A stretch of DNA of 64,000 bases from contig CAVPFY010000006.1 in NCBI GenBank assembly GCA_963703905.1, positions 198,841 to 262,840 of the forward strand, written 5' to 3'. Made by a program: the position numbers and the translations under genes. Positions 1-64,000 of the stretch are shown one piece after another (positions within the stretch are counted from its first letter, which is position 1; each line of letters starts with the position of its first letter). Source of the stretch: an uncultured Chloroflexia bacterium. Lineage in GTDB: Bacteria > Chloroflexota > Dehalococcoidia > DSTF01 > WHTK01. The notes under the pieces were generated by a model that had not been told where the DNA came from, searched no databases, and saw only the letters and a list, made by a program, of their open reading frames with translations.

Positions 1-727
1 AAACCGCTGGACTCGGTCTGACCGTCCTGCTCAACGGGCCCCTTCCCTGCGAAGCACGACGCCGAAGCGTTTTCAGCATGATTCGGATGTCACGTGCGAA
101 TGGATGTTCGTTTACGTAATCGAGATCGTAGGCCATCATTTCCTGGTAGGTCAAATCCGTACGGCCGTTGATCTGTGCCAGTCCCGTAATTCCCGGCTTC
201 ACGTTTGAACGCTCGCCATGTACTCGGGACGGTAGCTGCGAAACCAGCTCCGGCTCGTCCGGCCGCGGCCCCACCAGGTGCATGTCGCCCTTGAGCACGT
301 TGAGCAGGTTTGGCAGCTCGTCCAGGCTGCAGGCGCGGATCGTGCGGCCGATGGCGGTGACCCTGCTCTCGAAGTTCACGGGCCGAAACTTGAAGCTCGC
401 GATGTCCTCCACGTCCGGCACCGTCTGCTCATCGACGCGCGACTGGCGCATCGAGCGGAACTTGAAGATCTCGAACAGCCTGCCATCCTTGCCGACGCGC
501 TTCTGGCGGAAGAACACCGGCCCCGGCGACTCCAGCTTGATCAGGACACCGATCAGCGCCATCAGCGGGCTGAACACCACGAGCCCGATCGTCGCGATGC
601 CGATATCGAACAGGCGCCGCTGGACGGCGTCCGGCTCCGGCCTCCGCCGTGCTTCAGGGTAAGGCTCGAAGGCATTGGAAGCGCCCTCGCCCTCCCCGGG
701 AGAGGGGGTTTGGGGAGAGAGCCTCAT
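1..727 (-). CDS. Polyprenyl-phosphate sugar-1-phosphate transferase (WbaP/WcaJ-type small 'bacterial sugar transferase'); 3' end runs off the window start
   Basis: Manual minus-strand translation gives MRLSPQ...LFDIGIATIGLVVFSPLMALIGVLIKLESPGPVFFRQKRVGKDGRLFEIFKFRSM...LDELPNLLNVLKGDMHLVGPRP...KPGITGLAQINGR. These are hallmark motifs of this family. The ATG overlaps the upstream DegT stop as ATGA. It is not in the ORF track because no stop lies inside the window. Confidence 0.85.
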   Translation of the reverse strand, partial: MRLSPQTPSPGEGEGASNAFEPYPEARRRPEPDAVQRRLFDIGIATIGLVVFSPLMALIGVLIKLESPGPVFFRQKRVGKDGRLFEIFKFRSMRQSRVDEQTVPDVEDIASFKFRPVNFESRVTAIGRTIRACSLDELPNLLNVLKGDMHLVGPRPDEPELVSQLPSRVHGERSNVKPGITGLAQINGRTDLTYQEMMAYDLDYVNEHPFARDIRIMLKTLRRRASQGRGPLSRTVRPSPAV

Positions 728-1896
728 ATGCTCTCCCTGACCGCCGCGACCACCCGCTCGACCTCGCGCTCGGTCATGGCCGGGAAGAGGGGCAGCGAGA
801 TCAGCCGCTCGAACTCGGCCTCGGTCACGGGGTACTCGCCCTTCTGAAGGCCGAAGCGGTCGCGGTAGTAGGGGTGGTAGTGCACGGGGTAGATAGTGCA
901 CCGCGCTGCCGATGCCCTTCGCTTTGAGGCGCTCGATGACCTCATTTCGCGGCACCGACACGTCACGCAGCCTGATCACGTAAAGGTGCCAGTTCGATTC
1001 GACTTCCGGCCGCACGGCCGGGGTCTCGACGCCGGGCACGTCGGAGAAGAGGCGCGTGTAATGCGCCGCCAGCTCCGCGCGGCGGCGGTTATAGGCGTCG
1101 ACCTTCGCCAGCTGGTGCAGGCCAAGGCTGGCGTGCATGTCGGTCATGCGATAGTTGAAGCCCGGCTCCTCGACGGTGTAGAAGGGCGTCCCGCTTGCCG
1201 AGTAGCGCTTCCAGGCGTTGGAGTCCATGCCCTGATTGCGCAGGATCGACACCCGCTCGGCGATCGCCGGGTCGTCCGTCGTGACCATGCCACCCTCGCC
1301 GGTGGTCATGTTCTTGATCGAGTAGAAGCTGAAGACCGACGCATCGCCGTAAGACCCCACCGGCCGGCCGCGATACTTCGCGCCGACGCCGGTGGCGGCG
1401 TCTTCGATGAACTTGAGGTTGTGGCGGCGGGCGACAGCCAGGATCTCGTCGATGCGGCAGGGCTGGCCGGCATAGACCACCGGCATGATCGCCTTTGTCC
1501 GCGGCGTGACGCGGCGCTCGACGTCGGCAGGGTCGATGTTGAGGTCGTCGATGCAGATGTCCGCCAGGACGGGTGTCGCGCCGGTGTGGACGATCACGTT
1601 GGCGGTCGAGGCGAAGGTCAGGGCGCTGGTGATGACCTCGTCGCCGGGGCCGATGCCGCAGGCGAGCAGCGCCAGGTGCATGCCGGCGGTGCAGGAGTTG
1701 ACGCCGACCGCGTGCTTCGACGCCGGCGTACTCGGCAAACTGCTGCTCGAAGCGCTGGGTCTTGGGGCCGTACGTCGAGCCAGCCGGAGCGCAGGGTGTC
1801 GACAACCTCGTCGATCTCTTCCTGCGTGATGTCAGGGCGGGCGATGGGGATGAAGTCTTCGCTCAAGGGCCGGCCTCGGGGCGGGGTCCGTCGCAC
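724..1896 (-). CDS. DegT/DnrJ/EryC1/StrS family PLP-dependent sugar aminotransferase, interrupted by at least 3 apparent frameshifts
   Basis: Pieces in three frames: FIPIARPDITQEEIDEVVDTLRSGWL / GPKTQRFEQQFAEYAGV / KHAVGVNSCTAG...SFYSIKNMTTGEGGMVTTDD...WKRYSASGTPFYTVEEPGFNYRMTDMHASLGLHQL / PVHYHPYYRDRFGLQKGEYPVTEAEFERLISLPLFPAMTEREV. One shift sits at a short GTGCACTAT/GTGCACTAC duplication. Confidence 0.8.
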
Positions 1897-2492
1897 CCCC
1901 CGGCCGTCAATCCTGGGGCTGACGGCGGCGGGCGCAGGGCCACGAGGAAATGAGTTCGGAGGAAGGGTAACACTTCCAGCAAAGTGCAGGCGATATGGCC
2001 GCCCGGCAGCGGCGCCAGGAGGCGCGTGAGCGGAGGCGCAAGCGTGGTCGAGCGGAAGCTCGCGGTCCAGCCCGGGAACAGCTCACGGACCTGGTCACGC
2101 TTCAGGGGCAGGGCATCGCGGTTGAAGGGGTTAATCCAGAAGTCGTACAGCACGACGGCGCCGCCCGGCGCGCAGACGCGCGCGATCTCGGACGCCACCC
2201 GTCGTCTCGCCGCCCCATCCATAATCGAGGACAGCAGCGTGAAACCTAGCACAAGGTCGAACGCGCCGGCCTCGTAAGGGAGCGACTGTGCGTCACCTTC
2301 GTCGAAGCGGACGCCGGCCGTCAGCTCGCGGGCGCGCTCGACGCGCGCCGGCAGGAGGTCGATACCCGTGAGGCAAGCCGGGTCGGCGCCCAGGCGAATG
2401 AGGTCTCGCAGCACGCCGCCGTCACCGCAGCCGGCATCGAGGACGCGCCGCCCGGCCAGCGGCAGAAGGCCGGCATCACGAAGGAGGCGCAC
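1863..2492 (-). CDS. Class I SAM-dependent methyltransferase (Methyltransf_11-like)
   Basis: VLDAGCGDGGVLRDLIRLG... glycine-rich SAM motif I, then ...CAPGGAVVLYDF. Sits in the sugar-modification gene group. Confidence 0.6.
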   Translation of the reverse strand: MRLLRDAGLLPLAGRRVLDAGCGDGGVLRDLIRLGADPACLTGIDLLPARVERARELTAGVRFDEGDAQSLPYEAGAFDLVLGFTLLSSIMDGAARRRVASEIARVCAPGGAVVLYDFWINPFNRDALPLKRDQVRELFPGWTASFRSTTLAPPLTRLLAPLPGGHIACTLLEVLPFLRTHFLVALRPPPSAPGLTAGGCDGPRPEAGP

Positions 2493-2620
2493 CAGGTCGC
2501 GTTCGCGCGACTGGTAGGTGAAGAGGTTTGCCGGCTTCCAGTAGTCGTAGCGCGCGTCCAGGCCCAGGCGGGCGCGCCGGCGCGTAAGCCTGACGCACGC
2601 GCTCGGCCTCGCGCTCGGCG

Positions 2621-3676
2621 TCAGTCACCATTGGCTGCCGGCCGGCGGCGTGCCAGCAGTTGCTGCACGACACCGGCGATAAAGCCCGCTCCCGCCGGCA
2701 GGTGCATCGCCGGAAACGCCAGCCAGATGGCCGGCAGCAGCCGCCAGTGCCGCCCCCGCAGCGCGATGCTGAACGCCGCGAGGTTGCAGAAGCCGGCGTA
2801 TGTACCGGCGACGGACCGGAAGAGCCGGCCAAAGCGGCGGTCGACCAGCGAAAGCGCCCCCGTGAACAGCAGCGCCGAGACCAGCGCCGAAGGCACCAGG
2901 TGCCTGGGCCGCAGCCGGTCCGGGTGCTTGCGCAGGACGCCGGCCTTGGCGATGCCGTAGCCCCAGTACTGGCGCGCCAGGCCCTCGTAGGAGGAGCGCG
3001 CGTAGTAGACGGAGCCGATCGCCGGCGTCAGCAGGATCTTGCCGCCGGCGTCACGCAGGCGGTAGTTGAACTCGTCGTCTTCGCCGCGGTTTGCTTCTTC
3101 GTCGAACGCGCCGACGCGGTCGAAGACGTCGCGGCGGTAGGCGCCGAAGGCCACGGAGTCCGTCCATTGCTCGGTGCGGGCGTGCCGGAAGGCGGCATCG
3201 CCGACGCCGAAGGGCGACGACATCGCCAGCGCGATTGCCTGCCCGACAGGCCCGCGGCCTTTCGTGCGGATCGGCCCGCCGACGGCGTCCGCGCCGCTCG
3301 ACTCCAGGGCCCGGACGCTGGCCGAGATGAAGTGCGGGTCGACCAGCGTATGGCCGTCGACCTTGATGATGACGTCGCCGCGGGCGATCGAAAGACCCAG
3401 GTTCATGCCGGCGGCGGTCGTGTGCTTGTGGTTGGTCAGGAAGGCGTCGGGCACGCCGAGCTCAGCCGCGGCCTGCTGGGCCTCGTCGAAGGTGCCGTCG
3501 GCCGACTCGCCGTCGAGGACGATGACCTCGAAGTTCTCGCGCGGGTAGTCCTGCTGGGCCAGGGCCTGCAAGCAGGGACCGATGAAGCCCTCCTCGTTGC
3601 GCACGGCCATGATCACGGAGACAAAGGGCAGGTCCGGATTCGGCGCGGGCCGCTCTGCGAGCGCTTCCTCGGTCAC
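2621..3676 (-). CDS. Family 2 glycosyltransferase (GT-A fold) with C-terminal membrane region
   Basis: C-terminal 350 aa of the 711-aa ORF: PFVSVIMAVRNEEGFIGPCLQALAQQDYP...EVIVLDGESADGT...DAGG. The GTG start overlaps the GT4 stop as GTGA. Confidence 0.75.
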   Translation of the reverse strand: MTEEALAERPAPNPDLPFVSVIMAVRNEEGFIGPCLQALAQQDYPRENFEVIVLDGESADGTFDEAQQAAAELGVPDAFLTNHKHTTAAGMNLGLSIARGDVIIKVDGHTLVDPHFISASVRALESSGADAVGGPIRTKGRGPVGQAIALAMSSPFGVGDAAFRHARTEQWTDSVAFGAYRRDVFDRVGAFDEEANRGEDDEFNYRLRDAGGKILLTPAIGSVYYARSSYEGLARQYWGYGIAKAGVLRKHPDRLRPRHLVPSALVSALLFTGALSLVDRRFGRLFRSVAGTYAGFCNLAAFSIALRGRHWRLLPAIWLAFPAMHLPAGAGFIAGVVQQLLARRRPAANGD

Positions 3677-4756
3677 CGCCCGGCCGCCCCCGCGGCGATG
3701 CCGGTGACTTCGGCGTAGAGGCGCTCCATCTGGGCGGCGTTCTGCTTCCAGTCGTAGCGCTCGGCGACGAAGGCGCGGCCGGCGGCGCCCATCTCGCGCC
3801 GCCGGGCCGGATCTTCGACGAGGCTGCTGAGCGCGCCGGCCAGGAGCGCCGGATCGCGCGCGGGGACGAGTAGGCCTGTGTAGCCATCGACAACAACGTC
3901 CGGAATGCCGTGCACGCCGCGACCCCACGACCGGCAACTCCATCGCCGAGGCCTCGACAGCCGCAACACCGAATCCCTCGAAGACCGACGGCAGGGCGAA
4001 AATGTCGAGATCCTGCAGGAAGGCCGGCAGGTCAGAGTGCTCCAGCCAGCCCGTAAACTCGACCTCGATGCCCAGCCGCCGCGCCAGGCTTTCGAGGCGG
4101 GCACGCTCCGGCCCGTCGCCGGCGATGCGCAGCGACACGCGGCTGCCGAAGCGCGCCTTGACCTGCGCAAAGGCCTCGATCAGGTAGCGCACGCCTTTCT
4201 CGGCCGACAGCCGCGCGGCGGCGCCGATGACCACGCCGTCGCGGTCCGGACCCGGCGCCGGCGACGGCCGAAAGCGTTCGAGGTCGACGCCGTAAGGGAT
4301 GCTGTGCACGGCCTTGCCGGACGGCGCGTAGGGCAAGGTGGCTTCGGCCAGATTGGGCCCCGTGGCTGTGATCTCGTCGGCGTGCGAGAGGGCGTATTTC
4401 GTCAGCCAGTTGTGGAAGGGAGTGAGCCGCGGCGCTTCCAGGATGTCGGTCCCCCACACCGAGAGGATGTAGGGATGGTAGCCGCTGAGCGCGCCGAGGA
4501 AACCGTAGCTGGTCAGGTGCAGGGCGTGGAGGAGGTCTGGCTTGCGCTCGCTGACCAGGGCCGCGACCCGCCGGGCATGGATCAGATAGCGTGCCTTGCG
4601 CAGCTTCTCGAACCCTTCGACGTAGGTGACGGAAGCGCCCTCGATCGCGGCAGGCCGGAAGGAGATGACCTCGCACTCGTGTCCCAGGCGCGCGAAGTGC
4701 TGCACCCAGCGCCAGGTGTGAGGGTAGGGGGCGTCCGCGAGATAGAGGATACGCAC
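3673..4756 (-). CDS. Family 4 glycosyltransferase (GT-B, Glyco_trans_4/Glycos_transf_1), one apparent frameshift near 3920
   Basis: N-terminal MRILYLADAPYPHTWRWVQHFARLGHEC...GAAARLSAEKGVRYLIEAF...FALPSVFEGFGVAAVEASAMELPVVGS. The C-terminal GIPDVVVDGYTGLLVPARDP...RYDWKQNAAQMERLY lies in a second frame (ORF 3673..4170). Confidence 0.75.
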
Positions 4757-4801
4757 CCAGCGATTTTAGCAGGGGCGCCGCGGCGTCCGGCACGGCCCGC
4801 A

Positions 4802-6467
4802 TCACGGCAGCGTCGTCTCCATCCAGAAAGTGTTGTAGGGACCGAACTGGGACAGGAGGTAATAGAAAGTCTTGCCATTGTCCTTGATGAAGCCCGGCAC
4901 CATGAAGGGGCCGTAGAGCTGCTTGAAGTCGGCGTCGCGCGCGATCACAACGGGGGCGCTCCACGGCCCCCAGGGCGAAGGCGCTTCCCGCATGACGATG
5001 CCCTCTTTGCGCTGGTCCAGGTAGGTCAGTACGTAGCGCTGGAGATAAGGATTGAACGCGGCCGACAATTCACCCATCGGGCCACCTGCGACCGACACCG
5101 CGCCGGATTCGTTCGCCGACCAGATCGGGGCGTCGTCGGCGTCGAGGCCGGCAAAGTAGCGATAGGAGGTCTTATCGAGGATGCTTTGTTCGTCGACACT
5201 CATCAGCTTCACCGAGCCAAAGCGGCCGCACGGGGTTCCGAAGATGAAGAGGCGTGTAGAACCCGGCGCCGGGTCGCGCATGACAGCCACCTGGTTAAAA
5301 TTCCCCGATCCCCAGGAGATGTCGTCGATGTGCTTGCTCCAGGCTCCCTGGTCGAAGGCGCTTGCCGTGGCGATGCTCGACCGGCTGCAGCTCCAGGCGC
5401 CCGGCGGCAGGTCCCAGCTGACGATATTCGTGTAGAAGATGTAAGCGGTGTCGCCAAGGCCGATTCCCGCCGTCGGCACCACGGTGAGCGCCCTGCCGTC
5501 CGTCGCGAACAGGGCCTTTGCCTCTCCTCTGCTGTCCGTGATCCAGCCGTCGAGACGCAAGCCGTCCGAGGGCTCGGTGTCGGACGTGTAGGCGAGTGTG
5601 ACCGGCCGCTGGTCGCTGGTGGGCCGGCAGCTGCTGGTGTCGCCAAAGGCGAAATACGTCCGCCCTTGCCAGGCGAACGGCACGCCGTAATCCGTGCCGC
5701 AGACATTGAACCTGTCGGTGCGGTTGAGGGAGGCGGCTCCTGTCGTCTGCGCGACCTTCCTTGTCGACTGCACGCGGTCGATGAGCGGAGGCATCAGGTC
5801 CTGGTCGTATTCGCGGAAGTAGTCGATGGCGACATTGTAGGGACCAAGCGCGCTCCAATTTTTGCCCAGGAAGCCGATTCTGGCGCCGCTCAGCGCACCG
5901 GCGCTGTCGACGAACATGTTCACGTTGGTCCAGTTGCGACCGTCGCGGCTTCCGTCGGCGTAATAGCGATTCCCGACCTTGCGCAGACGCAGGTACTCGA
6001 ACCAGCCACTGACGCCGATGGGTCCGGTGAATGCGCCATCGATGATGCCGCTGAACTCGAGCGAGGACTCCTGCAGCCAGCCCAGAGAGAGCCAGTTGCC
6101 TGGCATCCTTGTAAACAGTCAGACCGCCGAAAGTGGCGGCGTTACCATGGCTGTTAGCAAGCTTCGTCTCGATTGTCCACGAGCCGGAGCGCTGCGGCCT
6201 GAGAATGCGAGCCCCCTTGTCGATGCCGGCCCACTGGTCGTTATTCGGCACCACCACCAGGTTGAAGAGATTCCCGGAGACGGCGTAGGCGGAGGAACCG
6301 CCGGGGTTCTCCCACGTCCAATCAGCACCCAGGCCACTTCTATCGAATTCGTCGCTGAAGCTCACGGTCGCGTGTACAGGCTGCGCCACAAGCGAGGCAG
6401 CCATGGCGGCAAGCGCAAGCGTCAGGACCAATGCGCAGAAGCGGAAAAATCCGCTCCGCGCCCTCAT
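4802..6467 (-). CDS. Secreted concanavalin/LamG-like (DUF1349-like) plus DUF4185-like domain protein, frameshift near 6100
   Basis: Signal peptide MRARSGFFRFCALVLTLALAAMAASLVA, then SFSDEFDRSGLGADWTWENPGG...WTIETKL (lectin/glucanase-like). This continues in the other frame as ...YLRLRKVGNRYYADGSRDGRNWTNV...FAFGDT... (DUF4185-like). Confidence 0.6.
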
Positions 6468-6774: not shown

Positions 6775-7681
6775 TCAGGGGTGGGGGTCCGCCGGCACCT
6801 TCGCCCGCTTCGCGACGGCTTCGATGGCGTCGATGATGCAGGGCCAGGCGCCCTCCGGCATCTCGTGGCCCATGCCCTCGACGGTCACCAGTTGGGCGCC
6901 GGGAATGGCCTCGATGCGTGTCGAGGCCGCCGGTGTACGGCACCAGGGGGTCGGCGTCACCGTGGATGACGACCGCCGGGCAGGTGACGGCCCTCAGGGC
7001 CTCGCGGCGGCCGCCGGAGGTGCCGATGGCCAGCAGTTGACGCGCCATGCCCTCCGGGTAGTTCATGCGGTCGTAAGCTTCCTCGGCCATGCGACGCACC
7101 TCGGCCTCGTCCATCGGGAAACCGCCGCCGGACATGACCTTGCGCGAGGCCACGGCGGCGTCGATGGCCGCGGCGCGGTCGGTCGGCCGCGCCGCTGTCA
7201 GGGCGGCGATGGCTTCGGGCGTGGCCTGCGGCAGGCCGGGCTCGCTGGTCGTCGACATGATCGAGGTCAGGGATAAAGTGCGGGCCGGGTACTTGATCGC
7301 GAAGGCCTGCGCGATCATGCCGCCCATCGAGGCGCCGACGATGTGCGCGGCGGGGATGTTCAGCGCGTCCAAAAGCCCGGCGCCGTCCGCGGCCATGTCC
7401 CAGAGGGAGTAAGGCGCCGATATCGGTTCGCCGCGCAGGTTGGCGGCGACCATTTCCGCCATCGTCGGTACAGGCACGCCGTCGAACTTGGTCGAGAGGC
7501 CGATGTCACGGTTGTCGTAGCGGACAACCTGGAACCCACGGCCGGCAAGCTGGTGGCAAAAGCGCTCCGGCCAGCCGATCATCTGGGCGCCGAGGCCCAT
7601 GATCAGAAGCAGCGGCGGCCAGGACCTCTCGCCGAAGCTGTCGTACTCGATCTCGATCCCATTCGCCTTTGCGATCGGCAT
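6775..7681 (-). CDS. Alpha/beta hydrolase fold protein, frameshift near 6955
   Basis: PLLLIMGLGAQMIGWPERF...HIVGASMGGMIAQAF (GxSxG nucleophile elbow). The real C-terminus IEAIPGAQLVTVEGMGHEMPEGAWPCIIDAI is in ORF 6775..6960. Confidence 0.65.
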
Positions 7682-9288: not shown

Positions 9289-10370
9289 ATGGCGCATAAA
9301 GATCTCGATGGGGTCCTAGAAAAGTTCAGCATTGGCGATGAGCTGCTGATCGGCGCCGGGGCCGAGTCGCGCGTCTACGCCCCTGGTGGGCCATTGCCAT
9401 GACCGGAATTGAAGCTTCGACCTCTCCCCCTCCCTTGCCGCGCTGGTTCGGACCTAGAGCCAGCCCAGATGACCCGGCCGTCTCGGCCCTGATCGACCGC
9501 GTCGCGCGCGGGGCCGGATGGGCAGACATCGGCGGTGGGTTCAACCTCAACGTGCGGATAGACGCTGAGCCGCCGGTTGTCCTCCGGGTTCATAGGCCCT
9601 GGGTCCGCCGCGGGCGGGTAGCGGGACTGCGGCGCTTGCGGGAGCGGCTCCAGCGGACGCAAGTCCGCGTCGCTCGGCCGATTCGGATTTCCGGCTGCGA
9701 CCTCCTGAGGGTCGCTGATCGTTGGGCTGAGCTTGAGGAGTTCATCGATCACGTGCAGCCACGGGCGGACGAGGACTCCTACGTCCGCCTATTCGAGGAG
9801 CTCGGACGCCTTCACACTGCGCTCAAAGCAGTCTGGGAGCCCAGTCCGCCCGAACCCCTCGACGACCACAGAACCTTCGGCCAACTGCGTCACTCGGTCA
9901 GCTTCACACGCCGCAGGCTCGGACCCCGCAGCGAGCCGGTCGTGCATCGGATGCGCCAACTGACTGGCGAGCTCTCCAAGCTCCGGAAGGAGGTCGAACT
10001 GCCATGCACTCCGATTCATGGGGACTACAAATTGGGCAACGCGGGAGAACTGTCAGACGGCTCATGGGCCACCTTCGACCTGGATTTCGCGAGGGTCAGG
10101 GAGCGGCTCTACGACATCGCGGCCAGCCTGCACCACGTCGCACAGAGCGGCGAATTGCTCGAGCCGCGACGACTGCTCGACGCCTACGAAAGCACGGCTC
10201 CGGAACCGTTGACTCGCGACGAGTACCGATGGCTCCCCGGGGCTCTAGCCCTTGTACCCTTGCACTGGGCTGCCACCGCAGGGCTCGTGGGCGACGGCAT
10301 CCGCGAGGCCGAGAGCGCAATGACCGCCGCCGAGGCCTGGTGGTCGCGCCGGGCTGAACTCTCGTCGTAG
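9289..10370 (+). CDS. Phosphotransferase enzyme family (APH/homoserine-kinase-II-like), frameshift near 9395
   Basis: N-terminal IGAGAESRVYAP is in a short upstream frame. It continues in ORF 9399..10370 with IHGDYKLGN and FDLDFA motifs. It is divergent to the 8278..9183 kinase. Confidence 0.6.
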
Positions 10371-10795: not shown

Positions 10796-10874
10796 TTGGT
10801 GGGCCCTCTCGGATTCGAACCGAGGACCGACGGAATTAAAAGTCCGCTGCTCTACCGGACTGAGCTAGAGGCCC
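10796..10874 (-). tRNA. tRNA-Lys (anticodon TTT)
   Basis: Minus strand reads GGGCCTCTAGCTCAGTCCGGTAGAGCAGCGGACTTTTAAT(T)CCGTCGGTCCTCGGTTCGAATCCGAGAGGGCCCCACCA. It has the U8/TAGCTCAG D-arm, a CTTTTAA anticodon loop, a GGTTCGAATCC T-arm and an encoded CCA. One extra T after the loop breaks canonical pairing and is probably an indel. Confidence 0.7.
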
Positions 10875-28051: not shown

Positions 28052-29656
<1,605 letters not shown>

Positions 29657-45150: not shown

Positions 45151-45235
45151 GTGAGTGGGGCGATCTTAGCACCGCGGTGGACGCTGCTCGGGGACAGGCG
45201 GCCGCCGTGCGGCACCAGCCCTGGCCTGACATCGC

Positions 45236-45624: not shown

Positions 45625-47468
<1,844 letters not shown>

Positions 47469-47600
47469 CGCGCGCCGACCCGCCCAACCTCAAAGCGTTT
47501 AGTAGTCAGGGTGGTCTAATCGAGACGGCCGTTGCGACAGCCCGCGTTTTCGCAGGCTGGGGGCGCCACTTATGCGAAGTTGTAAGGCCAGTTAACACTT

Positions 47601-47864: not shown

Positions 47865-48098
47865 CCCCACCATCTTTCGCAAGCATCACTCGGACGTAGC
47901 GCCGGCCGCTTCAGCCGCCGGGAACGCGCCGCCGCGCTTCGATCCGGCGTAGACTATAGAGACGCTGACGTGGTGTGACGGTTTGGCACGTCGCCCTGTC
48001 AAGGCGAAGGTTAGCGGGTTCAACTCCCGTCGTCAGCGCCAGCCATCCTTCGAGACCTCGAAGGCACCACTCCTCGAACACATCAGGCGGACCGGCGG

Positions 48099-49421: not shown

Positions 49422-49435
49422 GGTTACACTTCTCA

Positions 49436-50455
49436 GGCCGGACGGGCCTGCCGGTCCGCGCCGATTCCGTCAGCGCGTCGACAACCGCCAGCGCCGCGAG
49501 CGCGTCGTCCGGCGTCACGGGCGGCGGCGTGCCGTCGCGCACGGCGGCCACGAACGCCGTCAGCTCCTCGACCAGCGGCTCCCGCGGCTCGACCACCGTG
49601 CGCACGGAAGCGCCGGCTCGCTGGCCGCGGACTTGCGGGCGGGCCGCCCTCCCTGGCCGGCGTCGTCTGGACGTCCTGAGCAGGGTGGAACTCGAGCGTC
49701 TGCGCTGCGGAAGTCGTCGTAGCTGGCGACCAGCAGGCCGCGCTCGCCGAGCACGCTCAGCTCGCGCACTTTGCGCGGCGACAGCCAGTTCACCTCCAGA
49801 GTCGCGACTGGCCCGCCGTCTTTCGAAGCGCACCAGGCCCATAAGCCCGTCTTCGAACGGCGTGCGCACGCCGGACTGCGTCTCCGCGTAGACGCTCTCG
49901 ACCTCGGCGCCGAGGACGCCAGCGCATCACGTCGATGTCGTGCAGGGCGCTGTCGTGCACGACGTTGACGTCGCGTGCGGGCGCACGGAAGTCGGCCAGG
50001 CGCCGCGCCGCCAGCTGCAGCACCCGCCCGACCTCGCCCTGCGCGGACACGGCGCGACGAGCTCCTGCACCGCCGGGTTGAAGCGCTCGATGTGGCCCGC
50101 CATCAGCGGCGACGCCCGCCGCTGCCGCCGCCTCGGCCATGCGCGCGCGCCTTCGGCCAGCGGTGGCGCCAGCGGCTTCTCGACCAGCACGGCGCAGCCC
50201 GCCTCGATCGCGGCGAGCGCGACGCGGCCTCGTGCAGCGCCGCCGGCACCGCGACGACCACCGCGTCGAGCCGTCTCGCAGCCAGCATGCGCTCGAAGTC
50301 CGTGTAGGTTGGGGATCGTCGACCGCGGCGCGGCGGCGAGCCGCGTCTCGTCGCTGTCGCAGAGCGCCGCCAGGCGCACGCCCGCCAGTCTCGCTGAGGA
50401 CGCGCGCGTGGTTGGCGCCGAAGCCCAGGCCGACGACCGCGACCGCGAGGGTCAA
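49436..50455 (-). CDS. Gfo/Idh/MocA-family oxidoreductase (WbpB-like), frameshifted
   Basis: [20 protein letters not shown] (NAD-binding N-terminus) and a C-terminal ...EELTAFVAAVRDGTPPPVTPDDALAALAVVDALTESARTG in another frame. The 3' boundary is approximate. Confidence 0.55.
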
Positions 50456-51577
50456 CCGCCACCTGCCTCAGCAGGCTCAGGGCCGGCGGGATGGGCCGCC
50501 GTCCACTCGTTGACCGCCGCGACGATGGCTCGAGGTCCGCCTGGCTCAGGCCGGGGTGCACCGGCAGCGAGAGCACCTCGCGGGCGAGGCGCGCGCCATC
50601 GGGCAGGCCTCGGCGCCGTAGCCGAGGTCGCGGTACAGCGGCTGCGCCGGCACCGGCGTCGGGTAGTAGACGCCGGTCTCGATGCCGCGCTCGCGCAGCC
50701 AGGCGGCGAGCTCGTCGCGGCCCTCGGGCACGCGCACCGTGTACTGGTGCCAGACATGCGACGGTCTCCGGAGCCGGCGCCGGCGGCAGGATGACGCCGC
50801 GCAGGTTCCGGCGAGAGGTAGGCGGCGTTGCGGCGGCGCCGGCGGTTGAACTCCGGCAGCTTCGGCAGCTGCGCCAGCGCGAGCGCGGCCGTGATGTCCG
50901 TCAGGCGGTAGTTGATAGCCCAGCTCGGCGCTGCTGTAGCGCTCGCGTCTCGCCGTGCGAGCGCAGGCGCCGCATCTTCGCCGCCAGCTCGCGGTCGTCC
51001 GTGGTGAGCATGCCGCCTTCGCCGGACGTCATGTTCTTCGTGGCGTAGAAGCGAGAAGCAGCCGGTGCCGAAGCTACCGGCGCGGCGCCCGCCAGGCCTC
51101 CGCGCCGTGCGCCTGCGCCGCGTCCTCGATCAGCGCCAGCCCGTGCTGCGGGCGATAGCCTCGATGCGGCTCCATGTCGCACAGCCGGCCGTAGAGGTGC
51201 ACCGGCAGCAGCGCCTTCGTGCGCGGCGTGATCGCGGCTTCGATCAGCGCAGGCGTCGATGTTGCCGTCCTCGCGGACGTCGACGAAGACCGGGCGCGCG
51301 CCGACCGCCAGGATCATGTTGGCGGTCGCCTGGAAGGTGAACGGCGTCGTGATCACCTCGTCGCCGGGGCCGATGCCGTGCGCCAGCAGCGCCAGGTGCA
51401 GCGCCGCCGTGCCGTTCGCGACCGCGACGGCCTCGCGCCGTGCCGCGAGACCTCGCGGCGAAGCGGCCCTCGAGCTCCCTGGTCACCGGCCCCGTTGGCC
51501 AGCTGGCCGGAGTCGAGCACCGCCAGCACGGCCTCGCGCTCTTCGTCGCCGATCAGCGGCTGGGCGATGCGGATCAT
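50452..51577 (-). CDS. DegT/DnrJ/EryC1 aminotransferase (WbpE-like), at least 4 frameshifts
   Basis: [29 protein letters not shown] | [27 protein letters not shown] | [19 protein letters not shown] | [23 protein letters not shown] | [14 protein letters not shown] | IVAAVNEW fragments in successive frames. Confidence 0.65.
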
Positions 51578-51699
51578 GGCCGCTCCGGCAGCGGCGGCAG
51601 GTCGTAGGTCTCGTCGCAGTCGGCGCAGGCCCAGGCGTCGCCGCGCTCTCCAGCGTGCGGCCGCAGCGGCAGGCGTAGCCCGCCAGCTGTCGCCGGGCT

Positions 51700-52160
51700 G
51701 CCCACGACGCAGCCCGTGGTCCGGCACGTCGCCGCGTCACGAGCGCGCCGGCGCCGACCATCGCCCAGCGGCCGATCGTGACGCCCGGCAGGATCGACGC
51801 GCCGGCGCCGATCGACGCGCCGTATTCGCACCAGCGTGTGCGACCGGCACCCAGTCCTCGTCGGAAAGCTGGCGGCCGTCCGGGCGCGATGGCGCGGGGG
51901 TACTTGTCGTTGGTGAAGGTGACGTGCGGGCCGACGAAGACGCCGTCTTCGAGCGTGACGCCGTGGTAGACGCTGACCCGGTTCTGCAGCTTGACGTGGT
52001 TGCCGATGACGACGCCGCTGTCGACGTAGACGCTGTAGCCGAGGTTGCAGTCGGCGCCGATGACCGCGCCGGCGCGCACGTGGACGTGGTGCCAGATGCG
52101 CGTGTTCGGGCCGACCTGCGCGCCCTCCTCGACTTCAGCGGTGGGGTGGATCACGCTCGA
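51700..52160 (-). CDS. Left-handed beta-helix (hexapeptide-repeat) N-acetyltransferase (WbpD/WxcM-like), frameshifted; boundaries approximate
   Basis: [88 protein letters not shown] then ...[28 protein letters not shown] in a shifted frame. Confidence 0.6.
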
Positions 52161-53245
52161 GTATCTCGACGATCTTCGCCGCCGCCTGGCCGTCGCCGAA
52201 GACCGGCGGCGGCGGCGTCTGCGGGTCGGGCCTCTGCCGCCGCTGCGACGATAGCGGCCGGGTCTGCCCCGGCGAGCACGTTCCAGCCGCCCGCCAGCGT
52301 CTCCGGCCACTCCGACTCTTCTCGAAGCGTAACACAGGGCACGCCGAGGAAGTAAGCCTCGCGCTGGACGCCGCCGGAGTCGGTGAGCGACCGCCCGGGC
52401 GTTGGCTTCCAGCGCCACCATCTCGAGGTAGCCCACCGGGCTCGACCACGCTTGCACGTTGTCGCCGGGCCAGATCGCGGCAGCGCGCGCGGCCTCCCGC
52501 GTCCGCGGGTGCAGCGGCAGCACCACCGGCGCGTCCAGCCGCCCAGAACGCCTCGAAAGAGCGCCTCAGCGATGCCGGGTCGTCGGTGTTCGCCGGGCGG
52601 TGCACGGTGGCGAGGTAGTAGCCGCCCGGGCTCAGGCCGTGCTTCGCCAGCACCGCGCCTTCGCGCCGGCGCGCGAGCGGCAGCGCCGCCAGCAGCGAGT
52701 CGTACATCAGGTCGCCCACCCTGTAGACACGCTCGCGTCGATGCCCTCTTGCGCCAGGCAGTCGACGGCGTGGCGGTGGGGCAGAAGAGGTAGCGGAGAC
52801 GTGGTCGGTGACGACGCGGTTGATCTCCTCCGGCATCGAGCGGTCGAAGCTGCGCAGGCCCGCCTCGACGTGCGCCACCGGCAGGTCGAGCTTCGCCGCC
52901 GCCAGCGCGCCGGCCAGCGTCGAGTTCGTGTCGCCGTAGACGATGACGACGTCCGGCCGCTGCTCAAGCAGCACCGCCTCCAGGCCCTCCAGCATGCGGC
53001 CGTCTGGGCGCCGCGTGGCTGCCGGAGCCGACGCCCAGGTTGACGTCCGGCGCCGGCAGCCCCAGCTCGCGGAAGAACACGTCCGACATCAGGTCGTCGT
53101 AGTGCTGGCCCGTGTGGACCAGGACCTCGTCGTGCCGCCGGCGCAGCGCGCGGCTGAGCACCGCCGCCTTCACGAACTGCGGCCGCGCGCCGACGACAGT
53201 GAGGAACTTCACCGGCCGATTATTGCTCTTAAGTGGGCATAACAC
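52135..53245 (-). CDS. UDP-N-acetylglucosamine 2-epimerase (non-hydrolyzing; WecB/WbpI-like), at least 2 frameshifts
   Basis: N-terminal [23 protein letters not shown]...[31 protein letters not shown] | [50 protein letters not shown] | VLPLHPRT...[16 protein letters not shown] | [13 protein letters not shown]...AAKIVEIL. Confidence 0.7.
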
Positions 53246-53289
53246 TACGAAGAAGGCAAAGCGCTAACCGGCAGAAGCGGGAAAAGACG

Positions 53290-53754
53290 ATGGCGACGGA
53301 TGCCGAGATTCTTGCCCTGGTGGCCTTCGCATTCGCTTCGGCCGAGCGGCCGGAGCACTTCACGAACTTCGGCCATTGCGACGAATGCCGCGACCACGAC
53401 GACCTCCTGCGCTCCCGCGACCTGGAAACGCTAACGATCGACGATGTCGGCAACCAGGGCTGGGACCCGATCATCTTCACCTCGGCCGCCGCATTCGCCT
53501 ATTACATCCCGGCCCTGGCGCGGCTGGCCCTGGCAGCCCCGCATCCTGCCTGGGGTTGGTACGGCGACCAGCTGTCTGTCCACCTGCGCATGGACGGGAG
53601 GCGCAACTCGCGCTGGTCCCACTGCTCGCCGCCGCAACGCGAGGCAATCCGCGCGCTCCTGGAGCACATCTTCGCCACACGGTCGGACATCATCCAGCGC
53701 TATGACATCTTTCCTGAGTTTTCAGAAGCGCTGGATGTCTGGAGCGAAGAATGA
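53290..53754 (+). CDS. Hypothetical protein (155 aa)
   Basis: Clean ORF from MATDAEILALVAF...; no recognizable domain. Confidence 0.4.
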   Translation: MATDAEILALVAFAFASAERPEHFTNFGHCDECRDHDDLLRSRDLETLTIDDVGNQGWDPIIFTSAAAFAYYIPALARLALAAPHPAWGWYGDQLSVHLRMDGRRNSRWSHCSPPQREAIRALLEHIFATRSDIIQRYDIFPEFSEALDVWSEE

Positions 53755-53806: not shown

Positions 53807-55690
53807 CTAGCTCTTCGCGACCGGGGGCTTGCTGTCGTCGATCCACCAGTTGATGGCGGTCTCGACGACGGGGCTGCCTGCGGGTGCATTGGTGTACGCG
53901 CCGAGGTTGCCGATGACCGGCCAGTTGACGCCCAACGCCAGAGTTGTCACGGGGCCGTAGGGGACGTGGTAGGAGTTCTTCGCCATCGTGCGCTGGAACT
54001 CCGCTGCCAGGTCCTGCTGCTTCTTGGGGTCGAACTCGCGCCGGATCTTGTCCGTCAGCGCGTTGACCGCGGGGTCGCCATCCTGCGGGTTGAGGCCGTT
54101 GGCGGTGTTGCCTTCGAAGCGTGACCCGTTGGTGTTCATCGTCGAGAAAACCTGCAGGCCGACGGTCGGGTAGCCGGTGACGGCCCTGTAGATGATTCCG
54201 GTGAAGCCCTTGAAGGTCGTCCGCCCGCCGACGTAAGACTTGGTGTAGCCATAGTGGTAGTTGGGCAGCCAGTCATTCTGGTACTCGCGCGGGTCCAGCT
54301 TGGCGCGCACGCCGCTTTCGGAGAGCATGGCGCTGATCAGCTCGGCGCGCTTGGTGTAGACGGCGCCGTAGTTGGTGCCGCCGTTGAAGTGCAGCAGGGT
54401 GTCGACGCCGTTGGCGAATCCAGCCGCCGACATCAGCTTCTTGGCTTCGGCGACGTTGAAGGTGTAGACCTTTGCCCATTCGCCGAACTTCTTTGTGTCC
54501 TGCGGGTCCAGCCAGTAACCTTCGGCGCCGGCGCCGATCACGGTGTGGTAGCGCGGCTTGATGTCGATGCCTTCGGCGGCGAAGGCGGGACGGTTCGAGT
54601 CGACGTCCGTGATCAGCTCGCGGTCCATGATCATCGAAACGGCCTGGCGCATGCGCTCGTCCTTCCAGGGAGTGTCGCCTGCCCCGTAGCCGAACGTGAG
54701 CGTTGAGGGGTAGATCGGGTAGGTGTCGCCCTGGGTCAGCAGGGTCTGCGGCAGGTCGCGCTTGGTGGAGATGACGTCTTCCTGCACGACCACGCTGGTC
54801 CAGATACCGCCGGCGCGGAACTGCGAAAGGCGCGTAGCGTATTCCGGGACAATCGGGTGATCGACCTTGTCGATGAACGGGCGGCCTTTGAAGTAGTAGT
54901 CAGGGTTCTTGGCCCAGGTGCGGAACGCGGAGGGGCGGTTCTCCACCATGGTGTATGGCCCGGAGCCGCGGACGTCGCCCTTGGGGTCGAAGCCGCCTTC
55001 GGCTTCCCTGGGCATGATCCAGAAGATGCGCTCGAAGGCGAGCAACTTCAGGAGCTCGGGGTCGGGCTGCTTCAGCTTCACGACCACGGTCCTGGCGTCG
55101 GGCGCCGTCATCGACTCGATTGCGGCGCTGGGCGATTTGGCCGCGTCGTAGGCCACATCGGCGCCGAAGCTGCTGAGCTTGATGAACCGGTTCCAGCTCC
55201 AGACCACGTCCTGGGCGTCCAGCGCCCGGCCGTTGGTCGGAGCGCGGGCGTCGAGCTTAAGGTTGGGACGGATCTTCAGCGTCAGTGTCAGCTTGTCGCC
55301 CGAATACTCGTAGGACTCGACGGCGTCGCCTTCGACTTCACCCTTCGAAGCCTCCGGGTACTTTCCCGGGATGTACTTGAAGAGGCGCTGGTATGCGTAC
55401 ACGCCCAGCAGGGCGGCGGCGCTGAAAGAGGTGGTGGCGTGGAGGTCAAAGGTCGTGACGTCGGCCGTGATGTAAGACTTGAAGGTCCCTCCGGCCTTGG
55501 CCCGGCTGGTGGAGTCCACTGGGGTGTACACCAGGCCGCCGGCCTTTTCGCCGGAGCCGGAACCACCGTCGCTGCCGCCTCCGCAGCCTACCAGGCTCAG
55601 GGCCGCGGCGCCCATGCCAACGCCGGCCGCACCTGCCAGCGCGCGGCGCCGGCTGAGCCTGCTACTCGTAAGTCGCTTCCAATAACTCAA
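53807..55690 (-). CDS. ABC transporter substrate-binding lipoprotein, family 5 (peptide/oligosaccharide/nickel type) with Tat-like signal
   Basis: SRRRALAGAAGVGMGAAALSLVGCGG (twin-Arg plus lipobox). 627 aa with family-5 SBP sequence pattern throughout. Confidence 0.8.
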   Translation of the reverse strand: MSYWKRLTSSRLSRRRALAGAAGVGMGAAALSLVGCGGGSDGGSGSGEKAGGLVYTPVDSTSRAKAGGTFKSYITADVTTFDLHATTSFSAAALLGVYAYQRLFKYIPGKYPEASKGEVEGDAVESYEYSGDKLTLTLKIRPNLKLDARAPTNGRALDAQDVVWSWNRFIKLSSFGADVAYDAAKSPSAAIESMTAPDARTVVVKLKQPDPELLKLLAFERIFWIMPREAEGGFDPKGDVRGSGPYTMVENRPSAFRTWAKNPDYYFKGRPFIDKVDHPIVPEYATRLSQFRAGGIWTSVVVQEDVISTKRDLPQTLLTQGDTYPIYPSTLTFGYGAGDTPWKDERMRQAVSMIMDRELITDVDSNRPAFAAEGIDIKPRYHTVIGAGAEGYWLDPQDTKKFGEWAKVYTFNVAEAKKLMSAAGFANGVDTLLHFNGGTNYGAVYTKRAELISAMLSESGVRAKLDPREYQNDWLPNYHYGYTKSYVGGRTTFKGFTGIIYRAVTGYPTVGLQVFSTMNTNGSRFEGNTANGLNPQDGDPAVNALTDKIRREFDPKKQQDLAAEFQRTMAKNSYHVPYGPVTTLALGVNWPVIGNLGAYTNAPAGSPVVETAINWWIDDSKPPVAKS

Positions 55691-55822
55691 TTCAGGTCTC
55701 TCCTTAGTAAGAGGGTCAATCTCTCTGCTGCCCCGCTAACTAATACGATTTATATACGTTTGCAGACTTACGCGCGAGTCTGTAACTCGGCAGCTCTGGC
55801 TGAACTGCTGACAAGCTCTCCT

Positions 55823-57188
55823 CTACAGCCCGCTGACCGTCATGCGCGATATGCGCAGGCTCGGCGCGGCGACGCCGCCTCGCCAGAGCACATCCGAGCC
55901 GACGGCATCGATGTTGGCGAGCATGTCCTTGAGGTTGCCGGAGACGTTGATCTCGGTCACGGGTAAGGTGAGCTTGCCCTTCTCGATCCAGAAGCCCTGG
56001 GCCCCGCGCGAGAAGTCGCCGGTGGTGAGGTTCACCCCGAAGCCCATGAGGTCGGTCAGATAGAGGCCCTCTTCGATGTCGACGTACAGCTGCTGCGGCG
56101 CGGTCTCACCCGCCTGCAGGACGAAGTTGGAGGTGCCCGGCGAAGGTGCCGAGTCCAGGCCGCGATGCGCCGCGCCGGTAGTACGGCGCCCCATGCGCCG
56201 GGCATAGTAGCTGTCGAAAAGAAAGGCCTGAAAGACGCCGCGGTCGAAGACCGGGAGTGTGCGCGAGGCGACTCCTTCGCCGTCGAAGGGCCGCGAGCCG
56301 AGCCGCCCGGGGATCAGCGGGCTGTCGGTCAGTGTCAGTAGCGGCGACCCGACCTGTTGCCCTTCGAGATCGGCGAGGAAGGTCGAACGGCGGTAAAGGG
56401 CCTCGCCCGAGGCTGCCTGGCCGGCGATGCGCAGCAGGGCGCCGGCAACCGGCGCCTCCCAGACCACCGGCACAGCACTGGTCCCGACCTTGCGCGCGCC
56501 GAGCTTGGCGACGGCGCGCATGGCCGCCTTGCGGCCGACGTCCTCCGGCGACTCGAGCGCGGTGCAGGGCGCGCTCGAAGCTGTACCAGTAGTCGTTGCG
56601 CTTCTTGCCCTCGGCGTCGTCGCAGATCGCCTCGATCTGGAGGCCGGCGGCGGTCGAGGGGTAGGAGGCGGCGAAGCCGAGACTGTTCGCCAGGGCGACG
56701 ACCGTGCGCGTCACCTCCATCTGGGCGCTGTCGCTGTTGGTAACGCGGCTGTCGTAGTCGAACATGGCCGCTTCCATCCGCAAGGCCATGTCGCGCATCT
56801 CGTCCGCGGTCAGCGACTCGATGCGTTCGTCGTAGAGCTGGAGGTTGGGCAGGCTGCCCAGGGCGAGGTCGGAGCGGTCCGGCAGGCCTGAGAACTCGTC
56901 CGGCTCCGAAATCGAGGCCAGCTCGACGGTGTCGCGCACCATCTGCTCCAGCGCGGCCGGGGTCATGTCGGCGGTCGAGCATATTGCCGTGCGCTTGCCC
57001 TTGATGACGCGGATGCCGGCCGAATGCGAGCCGGCGTCGATCAGGCGCTCGACGGCCCCGCGGCGCACCTGCACCGATGACTCGGTGGAGGAGATCACCA
57101 TTGCGTCGGCCTCGTCAGCGCCGAGGTGGCGCGCCTTGTCGATGATGTCGGAGGCGATCGAGAGCAGGTCTTCGTTCAAGCGGGGCAC
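55823..57188 (-). CDS. TldD/PmbA-family metalloprotease, frameshift near 56500
   Basis: N-terminal MPRLNEDLLSIASDIIDKARHLGADEADAMVISSTESSVQVRRGAVERL...GIRVIKGKRTAICST. C-terminal ...NFVLQAGETAPQQLYVDIEEGLYLTDLMGFGVNLTTGDFSRGAQGFWIEKGKLTLPV in ORF 55823..56521. Confidence 0.75.
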
Positions 57189-57196
57189 TCCAGTGA

Positions 57197-57727
57197 TCAG
57201 AAGGTAGGCGAAGTCTGGGCCGTGGCTTCCGCCGATTCAAGCAGGTTATCCCAGTCCGCTCTTCTGGCGGTGATCTTGAAGTCCCTGATGAGCAGCCGGA
57301 CCACGTCATGGATGGCGATGAACCCGGTCGGAAAGTGAACATCGACAGCTGCCGGAGTGCCCTGAGAAGCCTCGCCAACGTGTAGATGCAGCGTCCTTAC
57401 CGGGCTTGCCCCGGCAGGGTGCCAGTGGTAAGCAAAGCCCGCTCGATTGTCGCGGCCATCCAGAGCGTATGAGTAGCCTGCGGTAGCGACCTTCCATGGT
57501 TCGTGGTCGTCCACAACCTCTACGAGTCGATAGTGATAGACAATGCGAAGGAAGTACCGCGCGGAGATGAGAACCGCATTGCCATGGCCGAGGATCATCG
57601 CGTGCGGGAATGTTGAAGGGGCGTATCCGCCAGCCACATTCAGGACACTATCGGTAATGCAGGAGATGACCTTGCCAGACTGCTCTAGCAGGCTGTTAAC
57701 CGCCTCAGCCGGCGTTCGACCTGCCAA
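57197..57727 (-). CDS. Hypothetical protein (176 aa), downstream member of a 4-nt-overlapping gene pair
   Basis: Intact ORF in an AT-richer patch. No domain I can name. Confidence 0.4.
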   Translation of the reverse strand: MAGRTPAEAVNSLLEQSGKVISCITDSVLNVAGGYAPSTFPHAMILGHGNAVLISARYFLRIVYHYRLVEVVDDHEPWKVATAGYSYALDGRDNRAGFAYHWHPAGASPVRTLHLHVGEASQGTPAAVDVHFPTGFIAIHDVVRLLIRDFKITARRADWDNLLESAEATAQTSPTF

Positions 57728-62448: not shown

Positions 62449-62465
62449 GGCCATCGAGCTTCACC

Positions 62466-62792: not shown

Positions 62793-62852
62793 CGGCGCCA
62801 GCGATAATCGTGGGCGCCCGTACACCCTGCCGCTCAGCTCAAAGGAACCGAA

Positions 62853-63828
62853 ATGGCCACCGTCCAGACCGCCCTCGGCCCCATCGACGCGGACAAGCTC
62901 GGGTTCACGCTCAGCCACGAGCACGTGATGAACCTGACGCATGATGCGCTACCTGCCTTTCCTCTTCGACAGGGAGGACAGCCTGCGCCGGTCGAAACGC
63001 CTCCTCACCCTCGCGAAGGAGGGAGGCATCGATAGCCTCATCGACCTCACGACCATCGACCTCGGGCGCGAGGTCGAGTTCATTCGGGCCGCGTCCGAGG
63101 CCAGCGGCCTGAACGTGGTGGTCGCGACCGGCTGGTGGCGGGTGATCCCGTCGCTGTTCTGGGCGCGCGACCCCGACTGGATCGCGCGCTTCATGTTTCA
63201 CGAGATCGAGCACGGCATCGACGACAGCGGCATCAGGCCCGGCGTGATCAAGCTGGCGCAGGACCAGGAGCACCTCGAGCCGGACGGGCGTCTCAATGAC
63301 CGCGCCGAACGCGTCGTCCGGGCGGCGGCGCGCGTCTGCCGCGAGACCGGCGTGCCGATCAGCACCCACCACTGGGCGCCGCGCGAAGTCGGCCGCCTCC
63401 AGGTCGAGATCTTCGTCGAGGAGAAGGCGCCGATGCACCTGATCTGCATCGGCCACAGCGCCGACACCACGGACGTGAAGTACCTGGAGGACCTGCTCGA
63501 TACCGGCTGCTACCTGTCGATGGACCGCTACCCCGGCGGCGGCCAGATGCCCGACTGGAAGGCGCGCAACGCCACCGTCAAGGCGCTGGTCGACCGCGGC
63601 TGGGCCGGACGCCTGATGCTGGGACACGATTATCCGCCGCCGCCAACGTTCGTTGGCTCCGACCCGCCGCAGGACCCGGAGCCGGTCCGTTACACCTTCG
63701 TGAAGAACGTGGCCGTGCCGGCGCTGATCGAGGACGGCGTCACGCGGGAGCAGGTGCGGATGATGACCGTGGAGACGCCGAAGCGCTTCCTGACCGGCGA
63801 GAAGCAGCTTCCCCGCGAATCGCGGTGA
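62853..63828 (+). CDS. Phosphotriesterase-family (PTE/Php, amidohydrolase TIM-barrel) protein, frameshift near 62940
   Basis: GFTLSHEHVM (first metal-binding H.H), then in the second frame ...IDLTTIDLGREVEFI...VVATGWW...VIKLAQDQEHL...HLICIGHSAD...LMLGHDYP. Confidence 0.7.
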
Positions 63829-63878
63829 GGCGGCGAGCGTAGACACGTTTATGCGTCGGACAGTCGTAGGGCTCAGTT

Positions 63879-63911
63879 CCGTTCGTCCTGAGCCTGTCGA
63901 AGGGCGAACGG
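63879..63911. repeat. Hairpin element CCGTTCG-TCCTGAGCCTGTCGAAGG-GCGAACGG related to the 45.3-kb tandem repeats
   Basis: 7-bp perfect stem. The loop contains TCCTGAGC(C/T)TGTCGAAGG, the same core as the 23-bp tandem unit at 45327..45392. Confidence 0.6.
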
Positions 63912-64000
63912 GGGCACAGGTTTGCGAGCGGCGATCGGGACGGCACGCTGAGTCAGCCTGGCGCCCGCTCGTGGTTCGAGGGCCTCACCACGAACGGAAA

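Follow-up and report, generated by a model that had tools for sequence, protein, structure and literature searches.

Single-base insertions in conserved genes of an uncultured Chloroflexia contig very probably reflect errors of the deposited consensus

The window analysed here, a stretch of 64,000 nt, originates from contig CAVPFY010000006.1 of assembly GCA_963703905.1 (positions 198,841 to 262,840 of the forward strand), which is assigned to an uncultured Chloroflexia bacterium. It carries the translational GTPase gene typA, a sugar-nucleotide cluster of five genes (48.1-53.25 kb, minus strand), a leuA/cimA-type synthase gene, a tRNA-Lys gene, and an AT-richer island. The content of guanine and cytosine (GC) is ca. 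66% in the window, 0.52-0.57 in the island (15.4-27.7 kb), and 0.72-0.76 in a very GC-rich stretch at 48-53 kb. A preliminary description, made from the letters alone, had stated that single-base indels break many of the conserved genes. This is confirmed by a frameshift-aware aligner, a DNA alignment, Pfam matches, and direct reading of the frames, and the counts are higher than those first given. The nature of these frameshifts is the subject of this report.

Frameshifts were located with a custom protein-to-DNA aligner, which allows frame changes of 1 and 2 bases and was run against full-length homologues. A reference-free Viterbi model of codon usage proposed corrections, which Pfam rescans then confirmed through corrected matches that are full-length, consist of a single stretch, and score higher. 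On clean control loci the codon model mostly makes 0-2 false calls per 8 kb (3 on one locus). Event positions are accurate to a few bases, and with distant references, as is the case for the cluster (51-75% identity), a '-1' event may be mistaken for '+2' or the reverse. Two codon-model switches were rejected as gene junctions, one at 3689 (boundary of the GT4 and GT2 genes) and one at 44228 (overlap of an APH and a hydrolase gene).

Interrupted genes of the window

TypA jumps between frames when the three forward frames are read across 45.56-47.62 kb. The insertions are located near 45742, 45752, 45990, 46210, 46244, 46371, 46690, 46739, 47085, 47134, and 47183 (see Table 1). Each of five full-length TypA references results in 10-11 frame-change calls, at matching sites. 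With the closest homologue (P0001), there are 11 '+1' calls, no deletion, and no stop; all 610 residues are covered and 527 of 609 are identical. The other four references fuse the first two insertions, which are 10 bases apart, into one '+2' or '-1' call. A MAFFT alignment of the typA DNA with 15 homologous loci, which is independent of the custom aligner, has 10 columns private to the window, each of one base and at the sites found by the aligner; it contains no window-private deletion in typA. The at least 8 shifts reported initially for this gene thus rise to 11, with 10 of these also seen at the DNA level. The corrected TypA violates none of the 295 columns in which 120 homologues show at least 98% conservation, while real homologues violate 0-7.

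Two repeat structures are found close to typA. In the intergenic region upstream, at the left edge of the block described below, a 22-nt unit (TCATCCTGAGCTTGTCGAAGGT) occurs three times in tandem (45327-45392), and beside it is a 27-nt pair with a spacing of 36 nt (both within 45232-45392). A 24-nt inverted repeat with 96% complementarity (47898-47921 and 48092-48115) flanks a tRNA-Asp gene (47964-48041).

For the sugar-nucleotide cluster, references were open reading frames (ORFs) from 80 loci, all returned by one metagenome scan with the second DegT aminotransferase. Every one of the five genes is interrupted several times. The preliminary description had proposed lower bounds of 3 shifts for ugd, 4 for the second DegT gene, and 2 for wecB, all of which are exceeded; the oxidoreductase and acetyltransferase genes were absent from its list. 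An in-frame stop of ugd at 48477 was rejected as a nonsense codon. It belongs to a brief out-of-frame stretch near 48470-48490 ('IDGG/YEKR/VLILGLAY', frame changes marked by slashes), which adds two shifts that had been hidden behind the apparent stop. The corrected second DegT protein shares 284 of 379 residues with its homologue from locus L022. A 9-bp near-duplication in this gene had been taken for an indel; the region (50851-50868) codes for LPKLPE and the homologue is equally long there, which identifies it as native sequence.

Correction of the five genes yields a complete WbpA/B/E/D/I-like set, which comprises a dehydrogenase, an oxidoreductase, an aminotransferase, an acetyltransferase, and a 2-epimerase (48132-53245, minus strand). 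By analogy to Pseudomonas, this set presumably provides a route to UDP-2,3-diacetamido-2,3-dideoxy-mannuronic acid (UDP, uridine diphosphate). An 87-nt tRNA-Thr(CGT) predicted by ARAGORN within acetyltransferase/DegT coding DNA (51689-51775, minus strand) lacks Rfam support and was dismissed as a false positive in sequence of 74% GC.

Table 1. Features of the window and the frame-changing events located in them (positions refer to the window)
Feature	Position	Strand	Events and remarks
First DegT aminotransferase	727-1863	-	3 insertions near 1776, 1718, 889
GT4 glycosyltransferase	3706-4765	-	1 insertion near 3919
Secreted LamG-like + DUF4185 protein	4805-6452	-	1 insertion near 6101 (direct frame reading)
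Alpha/beta hydrolase	6778-7681	-	1 insertion near 6919; corrected Abhydrolase_1 match covers profile positions 1-240 of 245
tRNA-Lys(UUU)	10797-10874	-	8-nt anticodon loop CTTTTAAT, expected CTTTTAA; extra T at ~10836
PbeC-like ATPase (656 aa) + PbeA-like PLD-helicase (713 aa)	15988-20351	-	intact negative controls; profiles matched end to end in one stretch
AAA_21/AAA_15 + DUF3696 ATPase (island)	21376-22960	-	one +1 shift at ~22745-22790 (direct frame reading); Walker A (GPNSSGKSS) in other frame
Beta-class DNA methyltransferase (TSPPF ... DPFSGSNAVG; island)	25600-26632	+	one shift at ~26010-26030, -1 or +2 (direct frame reading)
leuA/cimA-type synthase	27992-29653	+	3 insertions near 28448, 28542, 28606
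typA (translational GTPase)	45625-47465	+	11 single-base insertions, 0 deletions, 0 stop codons
Dense single-base indel block	45742-53008		58 detectable events, ~8.3 per kb
ugd/WbpA-like UDP-sugar dehydrogenase	48132-49418	-	10 shifts (8 insertions, 2 deletions) + 2 more at apparent stop
Gfo/Idh/MocA-type oxidoreductase (WbpB-like)	49432-50467	-	8-10 shifts
Second DegT/DnrJ/EryC1 aminotransferase (WbpE-like)	50476-51610	-	13 shifts (10 insertions, 3 deletions)
Hexapeptide-repeat acetyltransferase (WbpD-like)	51595-52169	-	7 shifts (6 insertions, 1 deletion)
UDP-N-acetylglucosamine 2-epimerase (wecB/WbpI-like)	52138-53245	-	6-7 shifts
PmbA/TldD metallopeptidase	55826-57200	-	1 insertion near 56564, splits domains 1-2 from domain 3
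Phosphotriesterase-family protein	62847-63825	+	1 insertion near 62937; PTE match extended from profile positions 43-298 to 1-298 of 298

Events in the remainder of the window are sparse. After correction of the first DegT gene, its Pfam match covers profile positions 2-360 of 360 instead of 39-310, and the score rises from 348 to 448 bits; without correction, its insertions give rise to a 610-aa ORF at 2-1831, which is a false "DegT + Bac_transf" fusion. Similarly, the insertion in the GT4 gene results in a false 714-aa "GT4 + GT2" fusion ORF (2624-4765), and its correction extends the Glycos_transf_1 match from positions 13-123 to 13-171 of 172. In the gene for the LamG/DUF4185 protein, the reading "...LTVYKDA/GNWLSLGW..." resumes in the next frame. 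The three insertions of leuA fall within 160 bp and jointly restore the frame, so that the ORF seems intact although ~53 codons are misread; upon correction, two HMGL-like stretches merge into one, covering profile positions 2-260 of 260. The Pfam match of the corrected PmbA/TldD protein is full-length and consists of a single stretch. For the tRNA-Lys gene, the Rfam tRNA model places one surplus base in the anticodon loop. In the same tRNA, C7 and A66 at the acceptor-stem base are mismatched; this mismatch may be a substitution error or native.

Most of the individual shifts listed in the preliminary description are thus recovered: three in the first DegT gene, three in leuA/cimA (at least two had been given), one each in the GT4, hydrolase, TldD, and PTE genes with confirmation by corrected Pfam matches, one each in the LamG/DUF4185 and AAA_21 genes, and the extra T of tRNA-Lys. 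Two entries of that list could not be upheld. A kinase gene had been named as shifted, but two APH-family ORFs scanned over their whole length and a histidine kinase each give a single-stretch Pfam match; in a third APH ORF (9399-10370), one frame reads through upstream of the scanned part. A methyltransferase had been named too, and the sugar-cluster gene at 1866-2624 has no supported shift. At 36929-37966 (minus strand), a 346-aa ORF without Pfam match has repeated D-x-D-G-D-G-x-C-D motifs, similar to the calcium-binding repeats of thrombospondin type 3, and the codon model proposes a putative compensated pair of shifts in it (37196 and 37380).

The genes of the AT-richer island had been described as intact. 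This holds for the 713-aa and 656-aa ORFs, as judged by their PbeA and PbeC profiles, both of which are from PADLOC. It does not hold for the island as a whole, where the ATPase and DNA methyltransferase genes are shifted; two events in 12.3 kb do not differ from the remaining background outside the block (p = 0.75).

Several further observations concern the gene content of the island. The 656-aa PbeC-like protein is an SMC/DndD-type ATPase, and no dnd modification genes were found in the window. The Pbe-like pair is followed by a 341-aa protein without family match (20351-21376, minus strand). The AAA_21/AAA_15 + DUF3696 ATPase resembles the PADLOC candidates PDC-M55A, NsnB, and HEC-03B; it adjoins a 278-aa protein with CARF and HTH_8 domains (together 21376-23772, minus strand), which resembles RtcR minus the central AAA+ module. 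At 23808-25049 (minus strand), two ORFs of 224 aa and 188 aa share a frame and are separated by one stop codon. They may represent two genes or a single gene that carries a substitution error; searches of Pfam, PADLOC, and PHROGs gave no family match for either ORF.

Spectrum and distribution of the events

Nine alignments covering eight genes contain 49 '+1', 3 '+2', 9 '-1', and 1 '-2' events. Over the whole window, ~65 bases are inserted and ~12 deleted, a ratio of ~5:1. For each insertion, all single-base deletions which restore the best local alignment were taken as candidates. For 34 of the 49 insertions (22.6 expected), all candidate bases are located outside runs, and a run of four bases is involved only once. 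The events thus are not of the homopolymer type (within runs and mostly deletions) that is classic for Nanopore R9, 454, and Ion Torrent. The candidate bases (C 18, G 21.5, A 8, T 1) are close to the local composition except for a shortage of T. Among the k-mers at insertion sites, including methylation motifs, none is convincingly enriched; the top 5-mer with more than 3 occurrences, CGCAG (7 vs. 1.6 expected), is not convincing given the many k-mers tested. About one-third of the insertions have a single candidate, as is predicted for random placement among the three codon slots. This indirect test led us to reject the tandem retention of both alleles at synonymous polymorphic sites. There is little sign of substitution error, and the ~2,400 codons of the block contain no nonsense codon after frame correction.

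Nearly all events are +1, and a tRNA with an expanded anticodon loop is encoded in the same window. Both would be in line with extra bases that are real and are read via +1 frameshifting or quadruplet decoding, perhaps with the help of tRNA-Lys and its 8-nt loop. We regard such recoding as having a negligible chance of being correct, since the sites share neither a codon nor a slippery motif and their contexts mostly consist of G or C, whereas such a tRNA would read an A/U-rich quadruplet. In addition, ~10 events are deletions, the orthologues are unshifted at all sites, and the expanded loop is itself explained by the insertion process that affects the protein-coding genes.

The events are distributed very unevenly. 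A single block that makes up 11% of the window holds 58 of the 72 located events, or 8.3 per kb compared to 0.25 per kb elsewhere. This corresponds to a 33-fold difference (binomial p = 1e-41). The block consists of six consecutive genes (typA and the five cluster genes), extends over 7.3-8 kb with sharp edges, and has an error level of roughly Q21. Its neighbors are clean, with the APH gene (44206-45165) to the left and a 173-aa ORF (53233-53751) and the SBP_bac_5 gene (53810-55735) to the right. Repeats at the edges, which would be a sign of a graph join, are restricted to the 22-nt tandem triplet on the left; on the right there are none.

The preliminary description had ascribed the frameshifts to GC-biased error and had seen them concentrated in the genes of highest GC. 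According to this explanation, reading or polishing is less accurate in DNA of high GC, for instance if a dropout of short reads at 73-76% GC left a long-read draft unpolished. It agrees with the finding that 47 of the 72 events are in the cluster with a GC of 0.72-0.76, that local GC at the events is 0.72 compared to a window mean of 0.64, and that the densest 1-kb bins are those with the highest GC. Even within the block a small residual effect is seen (0.739 at event sites, block mean 0.713, p = 0.008). However, typA (GC 0.63-0.67) with 6.0 events per kb does not differ significantly from the cluster at GC 0.74 with 9.1 per kb (p = 0.23), and density is even over GC 0.66-0.74 in what is one contiguous block. 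Bins with a GC of at least 0.70 at 2-4 kb and 60-61 kb contain 0-1 events, an APH gene at GC 0.72 contains none, and the low-GC island has the background rate. Event counts in 1-kb bins outside 45-54 kb are independent of GC (Spearman 0.12, p = 0.37), and error density does not rise with GC across the whole sequence. The association with GC over the window arises because the error block happens to hold the GC-richest genes. The earlier statement is thus correct as to where most events are found, but does not extend to typA or to the background, and we consider GC-dependent consensus error unlikely as the cause.

Origin of the insertions

The closest homologues of typA are from metagenome-assembled genomes (MAGs) of Chloroflexota or Dehalococcoidia (87% protein identity), and each of 8 intact window proteins proved to be a singleton cluster upon exact look-up, with entries from NCBI and ENA, all on one contig of 401,118 bp. 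The contig is therefore most likely from a long-read MAG. The exact-protein look-up among ~15 billion proteins did not reveal a close relative or a second assembly of the organism. A search for an independent copy with exact 50-mers retrieved only distant typA homologues from the genome collection (at most 73% identity over full-length matches and at most 78% over any match), and there was no match in the metagenome and viral collections.

Control loci show how assemblies of known origin behave. The set comprises 21 fetched typA loci, including four MAG contigs from the Microflora Danica catalogue, which is based on Nanopore reads only, assembled with Flye and polished once with Medaka (PMC12313526). 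Private single-base insertions in typA were found in two of these four, L010 and L002 (Pirellulales and Chloroflexia). The homology aligner detected 6 '+1' events in typA of L010 and 2 in that of L002, but no '-1' event. The codon model, applied to 8 kb, called 10 and 4 shifts, respectively, all '+1', compared to 0-3 in ten loci from isolates or other MAGs. Public long-read MAGs whose provenance is documented thus share the signature of the window, and in this small sample the isolates and other MAGs have fewer calls.

In both of these control contigs, the codon model places an excess of its calls in typA (7 of 10 in L010 and 2 of 4 in L002). This hints either at highly conserved genes being hot spots of insertion error in such pipelines or at a higher power of detection there. 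Moreover, 21 genomes that belong to several phyla share an identical 50-nt stretch of typA. Both observations can be accommodated if reads from related, unassembled organisms partly align to conserved genes (typA, DegT, wecB) and corrupt the consensus during polishing. Density in the block is independent of conservation, though, with typA having 87% identity to its best reference and ugd and wecB only ~51-57%. Conserved genes outside the block are clean (malic enzyme, thiolase, response regulator, histidine kinase). Moreover, the codon model is stronger in genes with biased codon usage like typA, which could inflate the enrichment in the controls. We thus consider conservation-dependent polishing error to be improbable, even more so than an effect of GC.

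If the indels were real mutations, the interrupted genes would be pseudogenes, either from gene decay or from a recent inactivation of the locus. Spontaneous bacterial indels favor deletions and repeat tracts. The window only has events of 1-2 bases, with ~5 inserted bases per deleted one, outside homopolymers. Eleven real indels in a dead gene should be accompanied by dozens of substitutions, several of which would affect invariant residues or create stops. In typA, there are 11 hits in one gene without any other damage, the near-invariant positions of the protein being untouched, and the block as a whole lacks nonsense codons. That a tRNA gene is hit as well, and that the same signature occurs in MAGs of known long-read origin, also argues against pseudogenes, which we regard as highly improbable.

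We thus consider it very probable that the frameshifts stem from a faulty deposited consensus and not from mutations in the organism, as had already been suspected. The events are single-base and mostly insertions, they leave no nonsense codons, the corrected TypA has all of its invariant sites, a tRNA gene is affected, and the signature recurs in Nanopore-only MAGs. The corrected products are full-length and as conserved as true orthologues. Genes of any function are hit (tRNA-Lys, island genes, core genes) and the events cluster by position, in one block.

Four points weigh against this conclusion or limit its reach. Both the artefact and the cause of the block are deduced from the consensus and not from reads. 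The detectable events are those which change the frame in coding DNA, together with one tRNA, which limits the visible extent of the process. Some seven additional codon-model switches are putative (near 244, 1970, 14436, 30372, 37196/37380, 57216, and 59356); the one at 244, in Bac_transf, was also rejected as a gene junction. Finally, the signature is compatible with more than one sequencing platform. Frameshifts by indels are a documented weakness of long-read MAGs, and consensus errors of Nanopore assemblies are usually described as homopolymer indels (PMC9262707); the insertions in the window avoid homopolymers. PacBio reads are also rich in insertions (PMC5351550), and this platform had been favored until the Nanopore-only control MAGs proved to have the same signature.

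The error process adds stray single bases, independent of motifs and homopolymers and mirroring base composition. It acts at two intensities, with ~8 events per kb in one stretch and a background of ~0.25 detectable events per kb. The dense stretch may have had far weaker read support or may have escaped polishing. A local drop in coverage could account for this, as could assembly of the stretch from a single read or a handful of reads with ~99% accuracy. Alternatively, the segment may vary between strains, with reads from mixed haplotypes having been collapsed (compare PMC8445201). The underlying genes would be intact and functional in the organism. We give very little credence to the idea that the extra bases are real and stem from a localized burst of +1 events at 45.7-53.0 kb (e.g., a tract of error-prone repair synthesis), or are tolerated through recoding aided by tRNA-Lys; the same applies to its milder, technical version, a systematic insertion hot spot of Nanopore-only pipelines in conserved genes like typA.

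Consequences and comparison with known systems

The artefact is an ordinary one, with nothing behind it biologically. It has practical consequences, and the earlier advice to treat gene calls and boundaries in the window as approximate was justified. Standard gene callers will return six consecutive genes in pieces, along with two false fusions (DegT + Bac_transf and GT4 + GT2) and an "intact" leuA with 53 wrong residues. The tRNA-Lys with its 8-nt loop could be mistaken for a frameshift suppressor. Pseudogene counts, pathway completeness, and claims of novel fusions require prior frameshift-aware correction or re-polishing if they are based on this contig. As errors in such assemblies can be patchy (here 33-fold), a clean neighborhood is no guarantee for the next gene.

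The window shares with reductive genome decay of the Mycobacterium leprae type that many core genes are interrupted. Genomes in such decay acquire nonsense codons and larger deletions, and missense changes affect conserved sites, whereas the window has none of these types of damage.

Frameshifts from collapsed haplotypes exist only in a mosaic consensus and vanish once the alleles are resolved (PMC8445201). Such a collapse is plausible in a polysaccharide cluster that varies between strains. That case concerns a diploid eukaryote, however, and in the window about one-third of the insertions are between codon positions 1 and 2 rather than being clustered at synonymous sites.

The other known parallel is provided by the indels of long-read and especially Nanopore-only assemblies, the "IDEEL" problem (PMC9262707, PMC12007338, PMC12313526), where single-base indels likewise fragment conserved genes that are otherwise full-length, and which is worse at low coverage. 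The textbook errors of this kind occur in homopolymers. Those of the window avoid homopolymers, insert ~5 bases for each one deleted, and are concentrated 33-fold in a block of 7.3 kb.

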